Source: a bacterium (GTDB lineage: Bacteria > Patescibacteriota > Minisyncoccia > Phycocordibacterales > Phycocordibacteraceae). From it: a DNA stretch of 38,205 bases. Each line of letters opens with the position of its first letter. Positions within the stretch are counted from its first letter, which is position 1. Below, piece after piece: positions 2,418 through 10,697 of the stretch. A model generated the notes under the pieces. It saw only the letters and a program-made list of their open reading frames with translations. It had not been told where the DNA came from and ran no database searches. The stretch is taken from positions 21,327 through 59,531 of the forward strand of contig DAICZA010000002.1 in the NCBI GenBank assembly GCA_027311385.1, written 5' to 3'. A program made the position numbers and the translations under genes.

Positions 2418-2430
2418 ATAAGTACCGTTT

Positions 2431-2483
2431 GTACAAGGTGGAACCTTGTACGTAACAGCGGCCGCCCGAAGGGCGGCCGCTGT
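2431..2483 (+). terminator. two hairpins after fusA (palindrome plus GC-rich stem)
   Basis: gtacaaggt-gga-accttgtac (2431-2451) and acagcggccgccc-gaa-gggcggccgctgt (2455-2483); weak U-tract. Confidence 0.55.
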
Positions 2484-2497
2484 GGTATCGTTTCTGC

Positions 2498-2728
2498 ATG
2501 AGCACCGTGACCTATATGGTAATTTCCATGGTGAGCTTCCCAGTTTTGATTGGCTATGTGTTCGTTAGACTTGCGTTCCCCTCCCGGAGACGGCCGAAGC
2601 CGGGTACAGCAGTCCAGCCACCGCTCACCAGAGGGGTCCCGACGTGGGTCATCGTCCTCCTTATTCTCTTAGTTCTTCCAGGCGTGGTTCTCGCGCTGAT
2701 CATCTCACGCCTCTTCTCGGGAGGGTGA
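2498..2728 (+). CDS. small two-TM membrane protein (cargo between the fusA repeats)
   Basis: 76 aa with two hydrophobic segments; TGg-TATCGT -10 box ends 6 nt before the ATG. Confidence 0.7.
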   Translation: MSTVTYMVISMVSFPVLIGYVFVRLAFPSRRRPKPGTAVQPPLTRGVPTWVIVLLILLVLPGVVLALIISRLFSGG

Positions 2729-2744
2729 TTTTCTTGTCAGTCGC

Positions 2745-2784
2745 TTCCAGTACCTACTGAGAGAATGCCTTTGTGGTACTGGGA
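2745..2784. repeat. hairpin repeat (ACC(T)AC/GTGGT-NN-GGG family)
   Basis: ttccagtacc...ggtactggga inverted repeat directly abutting fusA repeat copy 2. Confidence 0.6.
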
Positions 2785-2816
2785 TCGCGGATGACATCAT
2801 CGCGAGCCGGAAATAA
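2785..2816 (+). repeat. fusA 3'-end direct repeat, copy 2 (orphan ADDIIASRK*)
   Basis: tcgcggatgacatcatcgcgagccggaaataa; differences are only GAC/GAT, GAT/GAC and TAG/TAA. Confidence 0.9.
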
Positions 2817-2832
2817 TTTAGTTTACAAAAGT

Positions 2833-2866
2833 AAAACGGCGAGCATTGCGGCTCGCCGTTTTGTTT
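2833..2866. terminator. bidirectional intrinsic terminator
   Basis: aaaacggcgagc-attgcg-gctcgccgtttt. Confidence 0.8.
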
Positions 2867-2880
2867 GGGGAAAGGTGGGC

Positions 2881-3231
2881 TTACTCGATGCCGAGGCTCC
2901 TTTTGTAGATGTCTTTGATGAACTCAGTTTGTGATGCGAATGCTGTTTTTGATGACTCGTCCATTCGATCCCAGACCTTCTCCATCTGTTTTGCAAGTTC
3001 GGGATTTTGGCCGCGGGTCTGTTCGCGCTGAGTCTGGATGTTCGCAAGGCTTTGACGGTACGAGCGCAAAGCATTATCCAGGCTTTTTTGCATATCGGTC
3101 CTTGCGCGGGCCATGATGGCCTGACTGTGGACGGCATGCGCCGCGCGGAGCTTACGGATCTGTGCGTCTCCCCAGGCCGTGATCTCTTTCTCGGCCGCGG
3201 CGACTAATTCATCAATAGTGGGATTGGTCAT
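2881..3231 (-). CDS. hypothetical alpha-helical/coiled-coil protein (116 aa)
   Basis: Start re-assigned to MTNPT at 3231, which has a GAGGAG SD; ends near the 2833-2866 terminator. Confidence 0.7.
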   Translation of the reverse strand: MTNPTIDELVAAAEKEITAWGDAQIRKLRAAHAVHSQAIMARARTDMQKSLDNALRSYRQSLANIQTQREQTRGQNPELAKQMEKVWDRMDESSKTAFASQTEFIKDIYKRSLGIE

Positions 3232-3343
3232 GTGGCACTCCTCGTTGGTGGCGGATTGACAGGGTACTCCACGATTACATATCCCATATTTTATAGATAG
3301 AATCAATCGCATCGGAATGTAGTGCATTTGCACACCCTGCATA

Positions 3344-3371
3344 TTGACGGCGCTTTCAGGCGCGGTACCAT
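3344..3371 (+). promoter_or_regulatory. sigma70 promoter
   Basis: TTGACG-16 nt-TACCAT. Confidence 0.6.
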
Positions 3372-3377
3372 AGTTCC

Positions 3378-3505
3378 ATGCAGCGTCGACAGAATCTTCT
3401 CGGCCTCCTCCTTACCACCAACGGTGGAGGGTTCGGCCGTGTCTAGATTCTAAAAGAAACCAGATACAACCGAGAGCCTCCACCAGGAGGCTCTCGGTTC
3501 GTTTT
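3378..3505 (+). promoter_or_regulatory. candidate Leu-responsive transcription attenuator (leader peptide 3378-3446 plus terminator 3468-3505)
   Basis: Leader MQRRQNLLGLLLTTNGGGFGRV*; terminator aaccgagagcctcc-acca-ggaggctctcggtt-cgtttt; alternative pairings are available. Confidence 0.6.
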
Positions 3506-3539
3506 GATCTTTCTGCAACCAAGCAAGTAAGGAGGAGTT

Positions 3540-3845
3540 ATGGCAAGCATGCTGTTTACGGAACCGCCCGATGGTCTGTCACTCGAGGAAGTTCACCAAG
3601 CAATCGCCGTCGCAACTGCGCGGTTGAACGGCGAACGGGCGAAGATGGACGTTGTCCTCTTTGCGCAGGTGTACGTCGGCCCGATTGTCGTTACCCCGGG
3701 ACGGGAGGTAACGTCCTTCATTGTGTCGTACTCGGACAAGGACGCTGACGCGCCGGTATCGGTAGACACGGCGCTCAAACGACTTATTGATTCCCGGAGG
3801 CGGGACCGGTGGTGGTACCCGCGCCGCGATTGCTATTGCGCATAA
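3540..3845 (+). CDS. hypothetical protein (101 aa)
   Basis: Strong AAGGAGGAG SD; followed by a terminator. Confidence 0.7.
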   Translation: MASMLFTEPPDGLSLEEVHQAIAVATARLNGERAKMDVVLFAQVYVGPIVVTPGREVTSFIVSYSDKDADAPVSVDTALKRLIDSRRRDRWWYPRRDCYCA

Positions 3846-3870
3846 CCCGTTACCAGCGGGGGAGTGCATT

Positions 3871-3917
3871 CGGCCGCCGTTCGCCCACAAGGCGAATCGG
3901 CGGCCGGTTTCTTGTTT
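3871..3917 (+). terminator. intrinsic terminator
   Basis: cggccgccgttcgcc...ggcgaatcggcggccg followed by gtttcttgttt. Confidence 0.7.
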
Positions 3918-3969
3918 GTCTTCTTATCTTGCGTTTCTGTCCTAGATTGGTGGTAGAATTGGAAGACGT

Positions 3970-4206
3970 ATGGATATCGAGAAACAAAAGAAGAATGCTC
4001 GGCAGGCAACTATTGTATGCATAGTATTCTTGGTTGTATCTGTGTATTTTGGTGTAAAGGTCTTGTATCCCGACCTCGGAAATGAACCCGCTCATTTGTT
4101 TGATCCTCTTTATAACCTGGTTGCTTTTATCTTGGCGGCCCCACTCACACTTTATTATGCGATCCTAGCAGTATTTAGATTTTCCAAGTTACAGGGACTG
4201 AAATAG
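3970..4206 (+). CDS. small two-TM membrane protein, AT-rich
   Basis: 78 aa with two hydrophobic helices; TGg-TAGAAT -10 box 10 nt upstream. Confidence 0.7.
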   Translation: MDIEKQKKNARQATIVCIVFLVVSVYFGVKVLYPDLGNEPAHLFDPLYNLVAFILAAPLTLYYAILAVFRFSKLQGLK

Positions 4207-4239
4207 CAGAGGGGAGGTTACCCCCCTCCACGTGGCGGT

Positions 4240-4268
4240 TTGCATTTGTAAAGAGTTTTGCGTATAGT
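4240..4268 (+). promoter_or_regulatory. sigma70 promoter for tuf-rpsJ
   Basis: TTGCAT-17 nt-TATAGT. Confidence 0.7.
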
Positions 4269-4389
4269 GCTCTATAACGCATCTTGGCGTCGCTCTTTGG
4301 CTTGTCTGCTTTTGTGAGTCGGCAAGCTTTGGAGTTTGTTCCGACTCGCGTCGGAGTTATTCGTGATTAACAGAATAAATTAACCGATT

Positions 4390-5603: not shown

Positions 5604-6044
5604 ATGGCAACAGCGGCAAAACCGAAAGCAAAACCGGCGGCGAAGAAAGCCGCGGCAAAGGTCGCGGCGCCCGCGAAGCGCGCATCCGCGCCGCGGGCGA
5701 AAGCCCCGGCCAAGAAGGCCGCCACGGCCGCTCCGGCGGAGCACAAGCTCCGCATCCGCGTCCGCGCCTATGAGCACAAGATTCTGGACCTCTCGGTGAA
5801 GCAGATTATGGACACTGCCGCCCGCTTTGACGCCGTCGTCGTCGGCCCCGTGCCGCTCCCGACCGAAATCAAGCGCTGGACGGTGAACCGCTCTACGTTC
5901 GTCTACAAGGATGCGCGCGAGCAGTTTGAAATGCGCGTCCACAAGCGCCTCATTGATATCATGAACCCGTCCCCGAAGGTGATTGAGGCCCTCACGAACC
6001 TCAATTTACCCTCCGGTGTGACGATAGACGTCAAGATGGTCTAA
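5604..6044 (+). CDS. rpsJ: 30S ribosomal protein S10 with an N-terminal Ala/Lys/Pro-rich extension
   Basis: LRIRVRAYEH, GPVPLPT, REQFEMRVHKRLIDI. Confidence 0.97.
   Translation: MATAAKPKAKPAAKKAAAKVAAPAKRASAPRAKAPAKKAATAAPAEHKLRIRVRAYEHKILDLSVKQIMDTAARFDAVVVGPVPLPTEIKRWTVNRSTFVYKDAREQFEMRVHKRLIDIMNPSPKVIEALTNLNLPSGVTIDVKMV
5984..6044 (+). repeat. rpsJ 3'-end direct repeat, copy 1 (in gene)
   Basis: 61 nt; 53/61 identical to 7657-7717. Confidence 0.95.
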
Positions 6045-6061
6045 CTTCGCTCGGTTGGGCG

Positions 6062-6099
6062 AACAACACAGACGGTCCCGGTGACCGTCTGTGTTGTTT
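6062..6099. terminator. intrinsic terminator after rpsJ
   Basis: aacaacacagacggtc-ccggt-gaccgtctgtgttgtt, a 16-bp perfect stem. Confidence 0.8.
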
Positions 6100-6144
6100 A
6101 GTATGGGTGTGCGACGGTGTGCTACTGTAAAAGCACATCGAGGT

Positions 6145-7659
6145 ATGCAAGATGCGCTCAAAGACTTCGTATTGCAAGAACGAAAGAGAGGCGTTTCCGA
6201 CTCTGATATCACCCATGCTTTGCAAGGCGCGGGATGGCAGGTCGCTGACATCGAGATGGCGCTGGCGACACTCCCGAGTACCCCGGCGTCTACGTGGCGT
6301 ATGGGCGTATTGGCAATAGGGGGAATTGTAGCCATCGCGTTTTTGGCGACACTTATCTTTCTGATGTTTCGCGCGCCGTCCGCAACGTCAACTGGCGGCA
6401 CGGCGCGCACAGTCGTTGCACCGGTCGCTTCGGCGTCTCCGCAAGATGTCTCGCCTCCAGTATCTGTCGCGCAGAGCACGACCACGAGCCAATCGACGCC
6501 GACCGCCAACACATTCGCGCTTACGAGCATCTTTTTAAAAGATGATCCGACGGCGCAGCGCATTGCGACGGGCGCACAGAGTAGTGTCGATATCCGCACG
6601 TTTTCGTTGAAGATTGGAGACGCGACTGCTGTTGGTACCGATTCCTTCGCGTATCGTCTTGTTAGTGCGTTGCGTATGCTTGGATACGTTCCCGGCTCCG
6701 CAGGCGGGCAATATATGTCGGAATCATTACTGTTTCCTTTCGAGCGGGATAACAATCTCCCCGTATCAGATATGGTCAATGCGCAGGTTCTAAAAACGCT
6801 TGACGCCGAGCTTGCAGTCCGAGAGACCAAGGACGCACAGCTCTCCGCACAATTCCCGCTCGCGAAATATGTTACGGCACCACCGGTTGTTAACGAGCCG
6901 ACGGAGGAGCATGCCGCAGCGCTGTTCACGATTGCCTTCAAGGCATTGCCGTCGCAGCTGGTTGTGTGGAATGAGAAGAACTTCCAGACCTATCTCGCCA
7001 AACAGGTGACAGGGTCGTACGCAGGACTCGGCACGCCGAACTACCGCGTTTGCCTCGCGTTCTTGTACCCGGAGTTTGGAGACGCTTGTGCGGTCATACA
7101 TAAAAAAGTGTCCGGCTTCTGGGGAAGCGACTTTTCCATTGCCACCACGCTTCTGCACGAATATGCACATTACCTCGACAAGAACCTGTATGCTCCGGAG
7201 CAGGGGACGTCACTCGGTATCATAGACACGTCAGGGTTCTACGCCATTTCATACGATACGAGCAAGGGAACGGTCACCAGTAACGGGTGGACGGAATATC
7301 CCTTCCTCAGGCCGAACGATGTCGCAAACGAGTTTGTCTCAAGTTATGCTGAAGGGTGGGGCAATGACTCTATTCATACGGCGTATGAAGACTTCGCGGA
7401 ATCATTTGCCTTATACGTGACCGGCGGGCGGATTTTCCGTGAGCTCGCAAAGACCTCTCCGGTACTGAGCGAGAAGTACTTGTGGCTCAAAGAGCACGTC
7501 TTCGGTGGGCAGGAGTACGATACGGGAGACGTCGCGAGCATCGCATATCTCAAGGCCCACGCAACTGCATCCGGAGCGGATGCCGTAGCGACCAAGGCAT
7601 TCAATGTTATTGATTACGCTACACAACTTCCAGATTTTGACTGGAGTTACACGTTCTGA
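6145..7659 (+). CDS. membrane-anchored extracellular zinc metallopeptidase (HEXXH zincin); cargo between the rpsJ repeats
   Basis: Start at ATG 6145 (GAGG upstream). Short cytoplasmic N-domain, one TM helix, S/T/P linker, LLHEYAHYLD, FVSSYA...EDFAESFALY. Confidence 0.8.
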   Translation: MQDALKDFVLQERKRGVSDSDITHALQGAGWQVADIEMALATLPSTPASTWRMGVLAIGGIVAIAFLATLIFLMFRAPSATSTGGTARTVVAPVASASPQDVSPPVSVAQSTTTSQSTPTANTFALTSIFLKDDPTAQRIATGAQSSVDIRTFSLKIGDATAVGTDSFAYRLVSALRMLGYVPGSAGGQYMSESLLFPFERDNNLPVSDMVNAQVLKTLDAELAVRETKDAQLSAQFPLAKYVTAPPVVNEPTEEHAAALFTIAFKALPSQLVVWNEKNFQTYLAKQVTGSYAGLGTPNYRVCLAFLYPEFGDACAVIHKKVSGFWGSDFSIATTLLHEYAHYLDKNLYAPEQGTSLGIIDTSGFYAISYDTSKGTVTSNGWTEYPFLRPNDVANEFVSSYAEGWGNDSIHTAYEDFAESFALYVTGGRIFRELAKTSPVLSEKYLWLKEHVFGGQEYDTGDVASIAYLKAHATASGADAVATKAFNVIDYATQLPDFDWSYTF

Positions 7660-7717
7660 GGCCCTCACGAACCTCAATTTGCCCTCCGGCGTCACCATCG
7701 ACGTCAAAATGGTGTAG
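7657..7717 (+). repeat. rpsJ 3'-end direct repeat, copy 2 (orphan EALTNLNLPSGVTIDVKMV*)
   Basis: First 24 nt identical to copy 1, then 8 third-position synonymous differences; begins in the TGA stop of the cargo gene. Confidence 0.95.
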
Positions 7718-7866
7718 CGCGCTTCCAAAACTACTGCATCTGCGTTGTTGCGACTTCGAGAATTTCTTCCGTCGTACAGCAGAGTACGCCTCCAGAAATC
7801 GCCTCCCCGTGCCTCGCAACTGAAGCTTTCTGAAGACGCTCTGGAATTCAAGGACAGCCAAGATAC

Positions 7867-7900
7867 ACACAACCGCCCGCAAGGGCGGTTGTGTCGTTTT
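7867..7900 (+). terminator. intrinsic terminator
   Basis: acacaaccgccc-gcaa-gggcggttgtgt-cgtttt. Confidence 0.8.
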
Positions 7901-7901
7901 C

Positions 7902-7930
7902 TTGCATCTTTTGGGGCCTTCGTGTAGAGT
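7902..7930 (+). promoter_or_regulatory. sigma70 promoter for rplC-rplD-rplW-rplB
   Basis: TTGCAT-17 nt-TAGAGT. Confidence 0.7.
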
Positions 7931-8017
7931 GCTCCTAACGCTACGAACGGTGCCCGAGACCGGTCCTATGGCAGAACGCGCGATGCGTCTGCTTCGCGCG
8001 TTTTGCTTTAAAAAACA

Positions 8018-8632
8018 ATGAAATTCATCCTCGCCAAGAAAGAAGGAATGACCCGGATTTTCGGGGAAGACGGCCGCGCCCGCGCGGGGACCATTCTGCT
8101 TGCCGACTCGGTGACGGTGACGCAGGTGAAGACAAAGGAGGGCAAGGATGCCTACGCGGCTGTCCAGGTGGGCCAGGGCGTCCGCCGCACGAAGAACATC
8201 AGCAAACCGGTCTTGGGGCACACGAAGGGGAAGGGCTACTCGGCACTCCGCGAGTTTCGCGGCGCCGAAGGCGCCGCGGTGGGCGACACGATTGATGCGT
8301 CGGTCTTCGCCGTGGGTGACGTCGTGCGTGTGTCGGGCCTTACGAAAGGCAAGGGCTTCGCCGGCGTGGTGAAGCGCCACGGCTTCCACGGCGGTCCGCG
8401 CAGCCACGGCCAGAAGCACACCGAGCGCTCCCCGGGCTCCATCGGCGGCTCGGGCGGCCGCGCGGGCGGCCGCGTCGCCAAAGGCATCCGTATGGCCGGC
8501 CGTATGGGGAGCGACCGCGTGACGGTCACGAATCTGAAGGTGCTCGCGGTGGACGCGAAAGCGGGCGAGATAATCGTGAGCGGCGCCGTCCCCGGCCGCC
8601 GCGGTACGCTGCTTGAGATAGTCTCCGCATAA
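8018..8632 (+). CDS. rplC: 50S ribosomal protein L3
   Basis: KGKGFAGVVKRHGF, PGSIG, MAGRMG. Confidence 0.98.
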   Translation: MKFILAKKEGMTRIFGEDGRARAGTILLADSVTVTQVKTKEGKDAYAAVQVGQGVRRTKNISKPVLGHTKGKGYSALREFRGAEGAAVGDTIDASVFAVGDVVRVSGLTKGKGFAGVVKRHGFHGGPRSHGQKHTERSPGSIGGSGGRAGGRVAKGIRMAGRMGSDRVTVTNLKVLAVDAKAGEIIVSGAVPGRRGTLLEIVSA

Positions 8633-9737: not shown

Positions 9738-10586
9738 ATGAAAACGTACAAGCCCACTTCCAAAAGCCGCCGCCAGATGACCACCCTGCCGTACAAGCAG
9801 TTGCTTTCGGGCGACGCGCCGCACAAGCCGCTTCTCAAGAAGAAGGGGAATCAGGGCGGTCGCAACGCGTTCGGACGCATTACGACGCGGCACCAGGGCG
9901 GCGGCCACAAGAAGCGCTTCCGCGACGTGGATTTCAAATACGACAAGAAAGATATCCCGGCGAAGATTGAGACGGTTGAATACGACCCGTTTCGCAGTGC
10001 GTTCATCGGGCTCGCGCTCTACCGGGACGGCGCGCGCCGCTACGTCATCCTGCCGAAAGAAGTGGCGGTCGGCAGCACGTTCGTCGTGTCCGAGAAGGCG
10101 CCGCTCTCGCCGGGGAACCGCCTTCCGCTCGGGAAGATTCCGGTCGGCACGTTCATCTACAACGTTGAAATTACGCCGCTCGCCGGCGCGCGCCTCGTCC
10201 GCTCGGCGGGCAACTACGCCGAAGTGGTTGCGCACGACGCGGGCTACGCACAGGTGAAACTCCCGTCAACGGAAATCCGCAAGATTTCCGACCTTTCGTG
10301 GGCCAGCATCGGCGCCGTCGGCAACGAGGAATACAATCTCGTCGTCATCGGCAAGGCCGGCCGCAGCCGCTGGCTCGGTATCCGCCCGACGGTACGCGGC
10401 ACCGCGATGAACCCGGTAGACCACCCGCACGGCGGCGGCGAAGGCCGTCAGGGCCGCGGGCTCCGCCGCGCAAAGAGCAAGTGGGGCAAGCCCACCGGCA
10501 AGGGACAGAAGACGAGGACCCCCAAAAAATACTCAAACGTGTTTATTGTCAGCAGGCGTAAAGTTGGAAAGAAACGCAAAGGTTAG
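9738..10586 (+). CDS. rplB: 50S ribosomal protein L2
   Basis: GRNAFGRIT, EYDP, VRGTAMNPVDHPHGGGEG. Confidence 0.99.
   Translation: MKTYKPTSKSRRQMTTLPYKQLLSGDAPHKPLLKKKGNQGGRNAFGRITTRHQGGGHKKRFRDVDFKYDKKDIPAKIETVEYDPFRSAFIGLALYRDGARRYVILPKEVAVGSTFVVSEKAPLSPGNRLPLGKIPVGTFIYNVEITPLAGARLVRSAGNYAEVVAHDAGYAQVKLPSTEIRKISDLSWASIGAVGNEEYNLVVIGKAGRSRWLGIRPTVRGTAMNPVDHPHGGGEGRQGRGLRRAKSKWGKPTGKGQKTRTPKKYSNVFIVSRRKVGKKRKG
10527..10586 (+). repeat. rplB 3'-end repeat, copy 1 (in gene, AT-rich codons)
   Basis: Encodes KYSNVFIVSRRKVGKKRKG*. Confidence 0.92.
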
Positions 10587-10594
10587 CCGACCTG

Positions 10595-10635
10595 CCCCGT
10601 AGCCAACCGAGCGAAGCGAGGTTGTGGTACCGGGG
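10595..10635. repeat. hairpin repeat (CCCC.../GTGGT-NN-GGGG family) between the rplB repeats
   Basis: ccccgtagccaacc-gagcgaagcga-ggttgtggtaccgggg. Confidence 0.65.
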
Positions 10636-10637
10636 AG

Positions 10638-10697
10638 AAGTACTCAAACGTCTTCATCGTCTCCCGCCGCAAGGTCGGCAAAAAGAGGAAAGGATAA
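10638..10697 (+). repeat. rplB 3'-end repeat, copy 2 (orphan, host-like codons)
   Basis: Same 19-aa peptide; 14 of 19 codons plus the stop differ synonymously; shared core tactcaaacgt. Confidence 0.92.

Follow-up and report, generated by a model that had tools for sequence, protein, structure and literature searches.

A silently diverged copy of the rpsJ 3' end beyond a single-gene insert in a patescibacterial S10 region: a possible scar of recombination between lineages

Results

Organization of the rpsJ-rplC region

The stretch of DNA analysed, called the window here, comprises 38,205 nucleotides of a patescibacterial genome (GenBank assembly GCA_027311385.1, contig DAICZA010000002.1; positions 21327-59531 of contig C22 in the genome designated G000, which has 637,727 bases in 47 contigs). 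The list of open reading frames (ORFs) and Pfam place fusA, tuf, rpsJ, rplC, rplD, rplW, rplB and rpsS along it in this order. The subject of this work is the 3' end (tail) of rpsJ, the gene encoding ribosomal protein S10, which is present twice: once in the gene and once as an orphan copy beyond an insert with one long gene, the cargo gene. Coordinates are those of the window unless a contig is named, genomes and contigs are designated by G and C numbers, and the features of the region, all on the forward strand, are the following:

5604..6044, +, rpsJ (ribosomal protein S10), 146 codons; Ribosomal_S10, PF00338, E 1.2e-32, residues 50-144
5984..6044, +, in-gene copy of the repeat, 61 nt: last base of an Ile codon, 19 codons and TAA
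6047..6097, +, two hairpins directly 3' of the rpsJ stop; fold of 6045-6110 at -34.3 kcal/mol, z -5.4
6145..7659, +, cargo gene, 504 codons, ATG with GAGG 3 nt upstream; longest frame from GTG 6091
7657..7717, +, orphan copy of the rpsJ tail, beginning with the TGA of the cargo gene and ending in the stop TAG
7718..7848, +, 131-nt non-coding element; copies also at C9:8692-8819 and C42:28759-28815 of G000
7867..7894, +, conserved terminator hairpin, z -7.7, followed by the promoter-like TTGCAT...TAGAGT and the rplC leader to 8017
8018..8632, +, rplC (ribosomal protein L3), from the ORF list and Pfam

Two copies of one rpsJ tail

The rpsJ tail at 5984-6044 recurs at 7657-7717 with 53 of 61 bases identical and a spacing of 1673; the boundaries returned by the repeat search were 5984-6043 and 7657-7716, at 88% identity. 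Over the codon-aligned 60 nt, from the GAG at 5985/7658 to the stop, 8 differences are found, every one of them at a third position and none changing an amino acid, and the peptide of both copies is EALTNLNLPSGVTIDVKMV, followed by a stop. The in-gene/orphan codon pairs are TTA/TTG, GGT/GGC, GTG/GTC, ACG/ACC, ATA/ATC, AAG/AAA, GTC/GTG and TAA/TAG. One copy completes rpsJ and the other is an untranslated orphan, to which no long frame is attached (42 open codons only). The cargo ORF (6091/6145-7659) terminates at the TGA in 7657-7659, which is also the first three bases of the orphan. A preliminary description of this DNA, made without database searches, had reported the 61-nt repeat around an insert of 1.67 kb, the same eight codon pairs and the sharing of the cargo stop codon, and all three were recovered here. 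When 8 substitutions were placed at random, peptide and stop stayed intact in 0 of 200,000 simulations.

The junctions were checked in Logan contigs from the runs X1, X2 and X3 of one study, X1 being a possible source of the window DNA. Record 8 of X1 covers 5837-8400, including both junctions; in X2 the left junction is present in records 10 and 11 and the right one in record 15 (7148-7934), and in X3 both are present in records 18 and 22, in all cases with 0 differences. No N was found in the tail-duplication region of the window. Because both junctions are unchanged in separately built contigs of three runs, the duplication is real and not an assembly artefact.

Divergence and conservation along the tail

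Silent sites of the rpsJ tail were surveyed in 39 relatives (741 species pairs). Two species differ on average at 2.1 positions in the first 23 nt and at 8.2 in the last 37, and the two copies in G000 differ at 0 and 8 positions, respectively; 0 differences across the first 23 nt are found in 23% of the species pairs. Judged by these counts, the two copies are as distant as the tails of two species. Since every difference is silent and the divergence is at the between-species level, each tail must have diverged inside a working gene.

The block GAGGCCCTCACGAACCTCAA (5985-6004) is identical in 27 of the 39 relatives. At the third positions of the first six tail codons one base is kept in 29-38 of them, and later codons vary freely, as do the next 12 rpsJ codons after the block. 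This genus-wide conservation of silent sites suggests a constraint on the block at the nucleotide level. The 20-nt block gave 0 matches in viral contigs. The 24 identical nucleotides with which both copies begin, which the preliminary description had noted, were observed as claimed, but their reading as a special core was not sustained: the identity is no mark of a crossover, because the same block is shared by so many relatives. Nor are the codons of the in-gene copy (TTA, ATA) atypical, as had been supposed, since ATA occupies the Ile codon in 11 of the 39 relatives and TTR the Leu codon in 5, and the GC content at third positions (GC3) is 0.79 in the in-gene tail and 0.80 in the rpsJ body.

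Kinship of the two copies

In the 240 nt before the tail the closest relatives are G095 (92%), G013 (91%) and G117 (90%), and at the 8 diagnostic sites their matches to the in-gene and the orphan copy stand at 7:1, 6:1 and 5:1. The tails nearest to the orphan are those of G119 (4 differences) and of G110 and G073 (5 each). The triplet sites, counted as G095:G119, gave 73:41 in tuf-rpsJ, 5:5 in the in-gene tail, 0:8 in the orphan, 2:9 at 7849-7930 and 50:51 over the whole right flank. The kinship at diagnostic and triplet sites indicates that the two copies sit in tracts of different ancestry. A breakpoint inside rpsJ was considered and rejected, since the triplet sites are G095-like throughout tuf-rpsJ without a switch. 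G095 is the nearest genome overall, by about 2 points only (81-86%, versus 79-83% for G119).

The orphan runs directly into the 131-nt element. In seven species (G119, G023, G073, G196, G210, G226 and G002) this element stands directly 3' of the in-gene rpsJ tail, and a single alignment leads from that tail into the element, which is the arrangement of G000 from the orphan onward; the element is absent from G095 and G013. The copy in G119 is 94% identical over 66% of the length, versus about 80% in the neighbouring genes. The proposal that the orphan is the displaced original has thus been divided by the alignment of sister genomes that the preliminary description had called for: the run of the orphan into the element speaks for it, and the closest relatives match the in-gene copy, with the site counts given above. 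The evidence on polarity at rpsJ thus points both ways, the kin sites favouring the in-gene copy and the downstream element the orphan.

Elements of this type, about 110-130 nt long, also lie 3' of genes at other loci in G005, G010, G014 and G023, each copy being followed by a terminator. The single-sequence fold of the 131-nt element is unremarkable (z -0.2). Rfam gave 0 matches at gathering score across the whole window, which places the hairpins and the element outside described families.

The spacer between rpsJ and rplC

Empty forms of the site are found in G013 and G095, in which the rpsJ stop is followed at once by sequence matching G000 from 7849, with its terminator hairpin, promoter-like string and rplC leader, and G119 is collinear with G000 7658-8008 at 83%. 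The insert of G000 therefore measures 1673 nt relative to G119 and 1803 nt (6046-7848, orphan included) relative to G013 and G095. Among the 19 relatives with both rpsJ and rplC inside the fetched stretch, the gap between the genes was 151-216 nt in 5 and 444-4570 nt, with unrelated ORFs, in 14. This spacer is an insertion hot spot. Nothing on such a hot spot appeared among the literature matches listed, and no claim is made that the phenomenon is unpublished for the phylum.

The second of the two hairpins that follow rpsJ in G000 has a perfect 16-bp stem (arms 6062-6077 and 6083-6098, 100% complementary), and the hairpin sequence had no counterpart among the matches listed from 222 genus genomes.

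The cargo gene

The cargo protein itself reached no Pfam or NCBIfam family. From the N-terminus onward, the protein consists of a small three-helix domain, a single transmembrane helix, a linker that is disordered and a conserved domain some 385 residues long, with an AlphaFold model at pLDDT 85.9. An HExxH motif (HEYAH; H338, E339 and H342) is invariant across 22 homologues. One of the homologues (P0028) matched PF15890 at 29.3 bits (cut-off 25.6) and PF15887 at 27.0 bits (cut-off 27), which are Peptidase_Mx1 and Peptidase_Mx, and another (P0011) bears PG_binding_1. Fold searches with the cargo returned matches that are weak but concordant with this: 4l7a (Z 5.2 across 179 residues), PPEP-3 (Z 4.7) and the peptidoglycan-binding domains of CtpB and SleC (Z about 5), with Foldseek E at least 0.23. 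From these matches, the cargo product is probably a membrane-anchored, wall-binding protein that resembles an HExxH metallopeptidase. A truncation of its C-terminus by the joint was ruled out, because the homologues P0044, P0004 and P0013 share the end ...Y.F.

The GC3 of the cargo gene is 0.61, versus 0.79-0.84 in fusA, rpsJ and rplB. Its best relatives, about 50% identical, are scattered over Parcubacteria, Doudnabacteria, Saccharibacteria, DPANN archaea and some proteobacteria, and when the protein was searched in 150 other genus genomes, no more than 4 matches appeared, all of them weak and partial (best E 1.5e-4). The cargo is thus foreign by composition and was not found in the genus as sampled, a point on which the preliminary interpretation was supported. 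Searches for a donor of the cargo gave 2 weak loci only among metagenome contigs and 2 among viral contigs. In a soil metagenome run from another study (X5), four 151-nt contigs match the cargo within 6861-7552 with 0-3 differences, which indicates that the cargo or its organism occurs outside the source study; X5 is without coverage over either junction and carries no weight on them.

Other tail duplications in the genome and in the genus

Comparison of G000 with itself revealed six tail duplications in which both copies encode the same peptide with the stop in the same register. Besides rpsJ, they are the following:

2384-2417 / 2783-2816, fusA (EF-G) tail, spacing 399
10527-10586 / 10638-10697, rplB (L2) tail, spacing 111
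contig C9, tail of an RNase R-like gene, spacing 1381
contig C9, tail of an SMC gene, spacing 1193
contig C14:1391-1425 / 1594-1628, tail of a 199-codon, minus-strand ORF ending AGAKVTLK, spacing 203

All differences between the copies are silent in rpsJ (8 of 8), rplB (18 of 18), the SMC gene (13 of 13), the RNase R-like gene (7 of 7) and the AGAKVTLK ORF (4 of 4), and the fusA copies have three silent differences plus one at the boundary codon. No common motif was found at the six duplication boundaries. The same architecture recurs in fusA, rplB and three other genes of G000 and, as described below, at rpsJ in a second genome, which supports the preliminary interpretation.

The rplB copies, with no cargo gene between them, differ at 18 of 60 positions, including Ser AGC/TCC and Arg AGG/CGC switches. 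GC3 is 0.84 in the rplB body, 0.42 in the in-gene tail and 0.79 in the orphan, and the tails of four relatives show 7-13 differences from the orphan and 14-19 from the in-gene copy. From the relatives' tails and GC3 it is clear that a foreign tail has displaced the native rplB tail in G000. Codons like those of the in-gene tail are used by low-GC families of the same order. The fusA copies enclose terminator hairpins and a 76-codon ORF encoding a two-helix membrane protein (2498-2728); G095 is collinear with G000 past the in-gene fusA tail to 2487 and is without 2488-3389, which places the fusA orphan inside G000-specific DNA. On contig C9 (2825-4649, locus L153) the RNase R-like and SMC genes are convergent, each with a duplicated tail, and the two orphans, arranged back to back, abut the palindromic ends of an IS200-like gene (3488-4141, minus strand; PF01797, 35.8 bits). 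This order fits the insertion of one circle by a single crossover, or two separate one-sided events.

A second genuine duplication of the rpsJ tail was found in G001 (locus L025, contig C75; 512-641 / 1579-1699), with a spacing of 1067 and 6 silent differences. The repeat extends there over tail, spacer and terminator (130 nt, 83%), and the orphan is preceded by TTGCATCTTTTGG, a -35-like string that normally lies ahead of the rplC leader. These 2 are the only genuine rpsJ cases among the 222 genus genomes searched, 164 of which matched the block. Another candidate, in G225 (locus L152, contig C21), was rejected as a scaffolding artefact, since its two identical copies flank a run of N; artefacts of this type are a warning for any census of tail duplications.

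Homologues of the cargo beside rpsJ tails, which the preliminary description had proposed to look for, were not found. A duplicated tail of another upstream gene was nevertheless present at 2 of the 20 cargo-homologue loci examined closely out of 80 kept, namely QueG (143 nt, 89%) and a CBS-domain gene (43 nt, 81%). Other loci among the 20 show one 85-nt non-coding repeat (L054) and one repeated terminator; a reading of the 85-nt repeat as a tRNA 3' end was not confirmed, ARAGORN calling no tRNA at either copy. A strict script, which asks for a same-register stop and peptides at least 80% alike, returned 0 tail duplications over 524 kb of the 80 loci, versus 6 in G000, and it is blind to repeats running past the stop, as in G001, and to looser cases (L068, L069).

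An imperfect palindrome of about 42 nt resembling repetitive extragenic palindromes (REP-like; GCCCCGTAGCC...GTGGTACYGGGG, 10591-10634) occurs in at least 5 places in G000 (also on C9, C12, C33 and C42). It is directly 5' of the rplB orphan, with a related half 5' of the fusA orphan, and it also follows rpsJ in G017 and is present in many families of the order; it belongs to no Rfam family.

Signs of mobility

The only long sense-strand frame of the insert is the cargo gene, with no Pfam or NCBIfam mobility family, and Pfam revealed no transposase in the insert. No terminal inverted repeats of the insert were found, and no attC-like palindrome was among the inverted repeats found at 7400-7760, no dedicated attC model having been run. 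Searches with PF00589 and PF00239 located no recombinase in or beside 5984-7717: the single PF00589 match of G000 is Xer-like and lies at C22:849-1379, about 20 kb before the window, and PF00239 identified two large serine recombinases on contigs C1 and C33. The NCBIfam integron integrase models gave 125 and 79 bits with the sole tyrosine recombinase (cut-offs 265 and 435). No skip of 1673, outward joint or empty site was present in contigs of X1, X2, X3 and X5, although contigs cannot show rare forms. Genes for ComEC (PF03772, 147.9 bits), DprA (PF02481, 203.8 bits) and RecA (PF00154, 441.6 bits) are present in G000, a result that concerns presence only. No donor sequence was found in the 222 genus genomes, nor in genome, metagenome or viral contigs.

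Other features of the window

The N-terminus of S10 is extended by about 45 residues rich in Ala and Lys (5604-5739), a segment that aligns poorly even inside the genus (best 70-82%, over part only). The fusA-tuf spacer (2418-4389), of about 2 kb, contains small ORFs, including one of 153 codons on the minus strand, one of 101 codons and one of 78 codons encoding a membrane protein. It is largely unmatched in the 222 genus genomes, the shared parts being only 3390-3550 and the tuf leader (from about 4227).

Discussion

A scar of tail displacement between lineages

We consider it somewhat probable (roughly 0.55) that the structure is the scar of a tail-displacement recombination between lineages, produced by homology-facilitated illegitimate recombination or by single-crossover insertion, and not a self-moving cassette. 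The silent-only differences argue for this reading, since an orphan formed in place and free to change would not stay silent, as the simulations indicate. It is also favoured by the different kin of the two copies, the polarity at rplB, the hot spot in the spacer and the recurrence across six genes without a boundary motif, as well as by the lack of mobility genes and terminal repeats in the insert, the presence of ComEC, DprA and RecA, and the published parallels discussed below.

Two lineages of the genus, species-level apart, would each have contributed one rpsJ end. DNA from one of them, with its own rpsJ 3' end, would have entered the rpsJ-rplC spacer in the other lineage through two joints, an exchange within homology and a second joint that lies outside homology, at the cargo stop codon, where the only visible overlap is TGA/TGAGG. 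One possibility for the incoming DNA is a linear fragment, imported by the competence machinery and integrated by homology-facilitated illegitimate recombination; the other is a circle, which would have entered through a single crossover within the conserved block of 20 nt. Selection would keep only products with a complete S10 frame, which would explain why one tail is in the gene and the other has been left untranslated and not yet decayed. The cargo has its own ribosome-binding site and lies behind a strong hairpin. The order of events, the linear or circular form of the DNA and the choice of the resident tail belong to what is inferred.

Several points weigh against this reading. Neither a donor nor an empty site above about 93% identity was found, and for this reason neither joint is demonstrable as homologous or illegitimate. 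The kin comparisons are partly circular, because the genomes compared were themselves found by similarity to these segments, G119 to the orphan region and G095 to the rpsJ end, and the Fisher p values are 0.04-0.18 only. On its left the orphan is bounded at T|GAGGCC in G000 and at CTCACG, or immediately beside it, in G001; the two boundaries are at most 9 nt apart on the conserved block, a proximity more readily expected from a directed exchange at the block than from illegitimate joints at random. Products of homology-facilitated illegitimate recombination have one junction inside homology and the other at a microhomology of a few bases, and the usual outcome is replacement or loss of DNA of the recipient, not its duplication. 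Contigs, moreover, leave room for rare circles or empty sites.

Alternative explanations

The proximity of the two boundaries would be explained directly if the 1673 nt were a non-autonomous, site-specific cassette with the rpsJ block as attachment site, a replacement tail, a recombinase acting in trans (either large serine recombinase or the Xer-like enzyme) and excision as a circle. Such a cassette, which corresponds to the model of the preliminary description, would account for the identical 24 nt at the 5' ends followed by divergence, the exact restoration of the gene and the lack of spare DNA on the cargo side. The independent G001 insert in the same gene, the far stronger conservation of silent sites in the block than in the following codons, the two large serine recombinase genes and the duplicated upstream-gene tails at 2 of 20 cargo-homologue loci are also in its favour. 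We regard it as possible but doubtful, because the insert has no recombinase in or beside it, the identity of the block is accounted for by its conservation among relatives, the six duplicated tails of G000 have no common boundary motif and only 2 genuine cases are found in a genus in which 164 genomes carry the block. The cargo, in addition, was not found elsewhere in the genus, no excision joint was present in contigs of the four runs and no viral contig carries the block. Quite unlikely in our view is a single-strand transposition directed by hairpins, in which a tyrosine transposase of the REP/IS200 type would move a tail with a REP-like hairpin, or with the cargo, into the same gene elsewhere. 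The REP-like hairpin next to the rplB and fusA orphans and its spread over the order, the C9 orphans at the palindromic ends of the IS200-like gene and the motif TTGTGGTACYGGG, which occurs twice in the window versus 0.03 expected, all point in this direction; the rpsJ orphan, however, is preceded by cargo coding sequence and by no such hairpin, the match to a Y1 transposase is weak and under the NCBIfam cut-off, and the mechanism is conjectural, with no cleavage motif identified.

Insertion of the cargo could also have duplicated the tail in place, as a tandem or long target-site repeat whose copies diverged afterwards, and the form would then be that of published insertions with long target duplication (PMC2853133). 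Such an origin is nevertheless very unlikely, since the published repeats are near-identical (44/46 and 417/423) and those of rpsJ differ at 8 of 61 positions, all silent and the stop included, and those of rplB at 18 of 60, with serine and arginine codons switched between AGC and TCC and between AGG and CGC; an untranslated orphan would moreover lose its peptide, and the copies have different kin. A chimera of two strains made in assembly or binning is suggested by the 47 contigs and by the artefact across the N gap in G225, but it is scarcely credible given the unchanged junctions in separate contigs of X1, X2 and X3, the lack of N in the region and the non-identity of the copies. Beyond the scar of tail displacement and these alternatives, a more general hypothesis would be that small-genome Patescibacteria have homology-addressed cassettes, in which the silently diverged 3' end of an essential gene serves as an address label; entry, and perhaps exit, would be by host RecA and competence functions at blocks like GAGGCCCTCACGAACCTCAA, or by a transposase of the REP/IS200 type, without an integrase of their own. 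We hold this hypothesis to be tentative and rather improbable.

Comparison with known systems

Insertion with long target duplication has reportedly been treated by Nobusato et al. in 2000. In a later report, such insertions consist of a few genes between direct repeats longer than 30 bp, carry no mobility genes and come mostly from naturally competent species; genomes without the insert have the repeat only once, and one repeat overlaps the 3' end of a gene (PMC2853133, Furuta et al. 2010). The rpsJ structure resembles them in its 61-nt direct repeat, in the single tail of the insert-free G013, G095 and G119, and in the lack of a mobility gene. It is unlike them in that their cargo is restriction-modification genes between near-identical repeats, whereas here the cargo is putatively wall-binding and metallopeptidase-like and the duplicated sequence is the coding 3' end of a gene for an essential ribosomal protein, with copies that differ silently at the between-species level. 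It departs from the published models in that the repeat copies are not identical and encode the same peptide.

The displacement of C-terminal ends has been attributed to homology-facilitated illegitimate recombination in one study (PMC5361080, Kirchberger et al. 2017), and that of rhs C-termini to circular intermediates and homologous recombination in another (PMC2935791, Jackson et al. 2009). The rhs, contact-dependent inhibition and type VI secretion systems are similar to the present case in that an incoming 3' end with a downstream gene takes over the frame, and the former 3' end, displaced downstream, is an orphan that starts with a partial repeat of the conserved part. In those systems the tips encode distinct toxins, accompanied by immunity genes, and selection acts on the exchange as such; here, by contrast, both tails encode the same peptide and the cargo is one HExxH gene. 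Because the peptide is the same, the exchange would be neutral for S10 and only the cargo would be new.

Integrative elements that insert at the 3' ends of tRNA or housekeeping genes, such as rpsI, rplL and rpmG in streptococci, restore the gene from their attP; they encode an integrase and range in length from kilobases to hundreds of kilobases. The duplicated gene 3' end is common to both, and an in-gene copy supplied by the element, with the old end at the far junction, may be; but the present insert has a single cargo gene and no recombinase, and tails of six different genes are duplicated in this small genome. The insert is like an integron cassette in being a single-gene unit of about 1.7 kb, without an apparent promoter, at a fixed place, and unlike it in that neither an attC-like palindrome nor an integron integrase was found here and cassettes are not known to duplicate the tail of a host gene. 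It differs from insertion sequences in having no terminal inverted repeats or transposase and in its flanking repeat, which is 61 nt long and not identical.

Significance

The str/S10 region is normally the most stable gene order of bacteria; here it accepts accessory genes, and almost every species of the genus has a different spacer. Bacteria with tiny genomes of this sort are thought to depend on DNA uptake. Orphan tails would be dated fingerprints of exchange between lineages, since their silent differences equal the distance between species, and they would offer a direct means, from sequence only, of counting gene transfers and reading their direction in bacteria that are uncultured and have tiny genomes. 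That the orphans of G000 and G001 begin so close together on the conserved block keeps a directed mechanism alive. If the process were directed and not accidental, it would be a form of gene insertion that needs no integrase and spares an essential target, and if homology-addressed cassettes exist, the most conserved operon would double as a landing pad for accessory genes and provide a recurrent route of gene gain.

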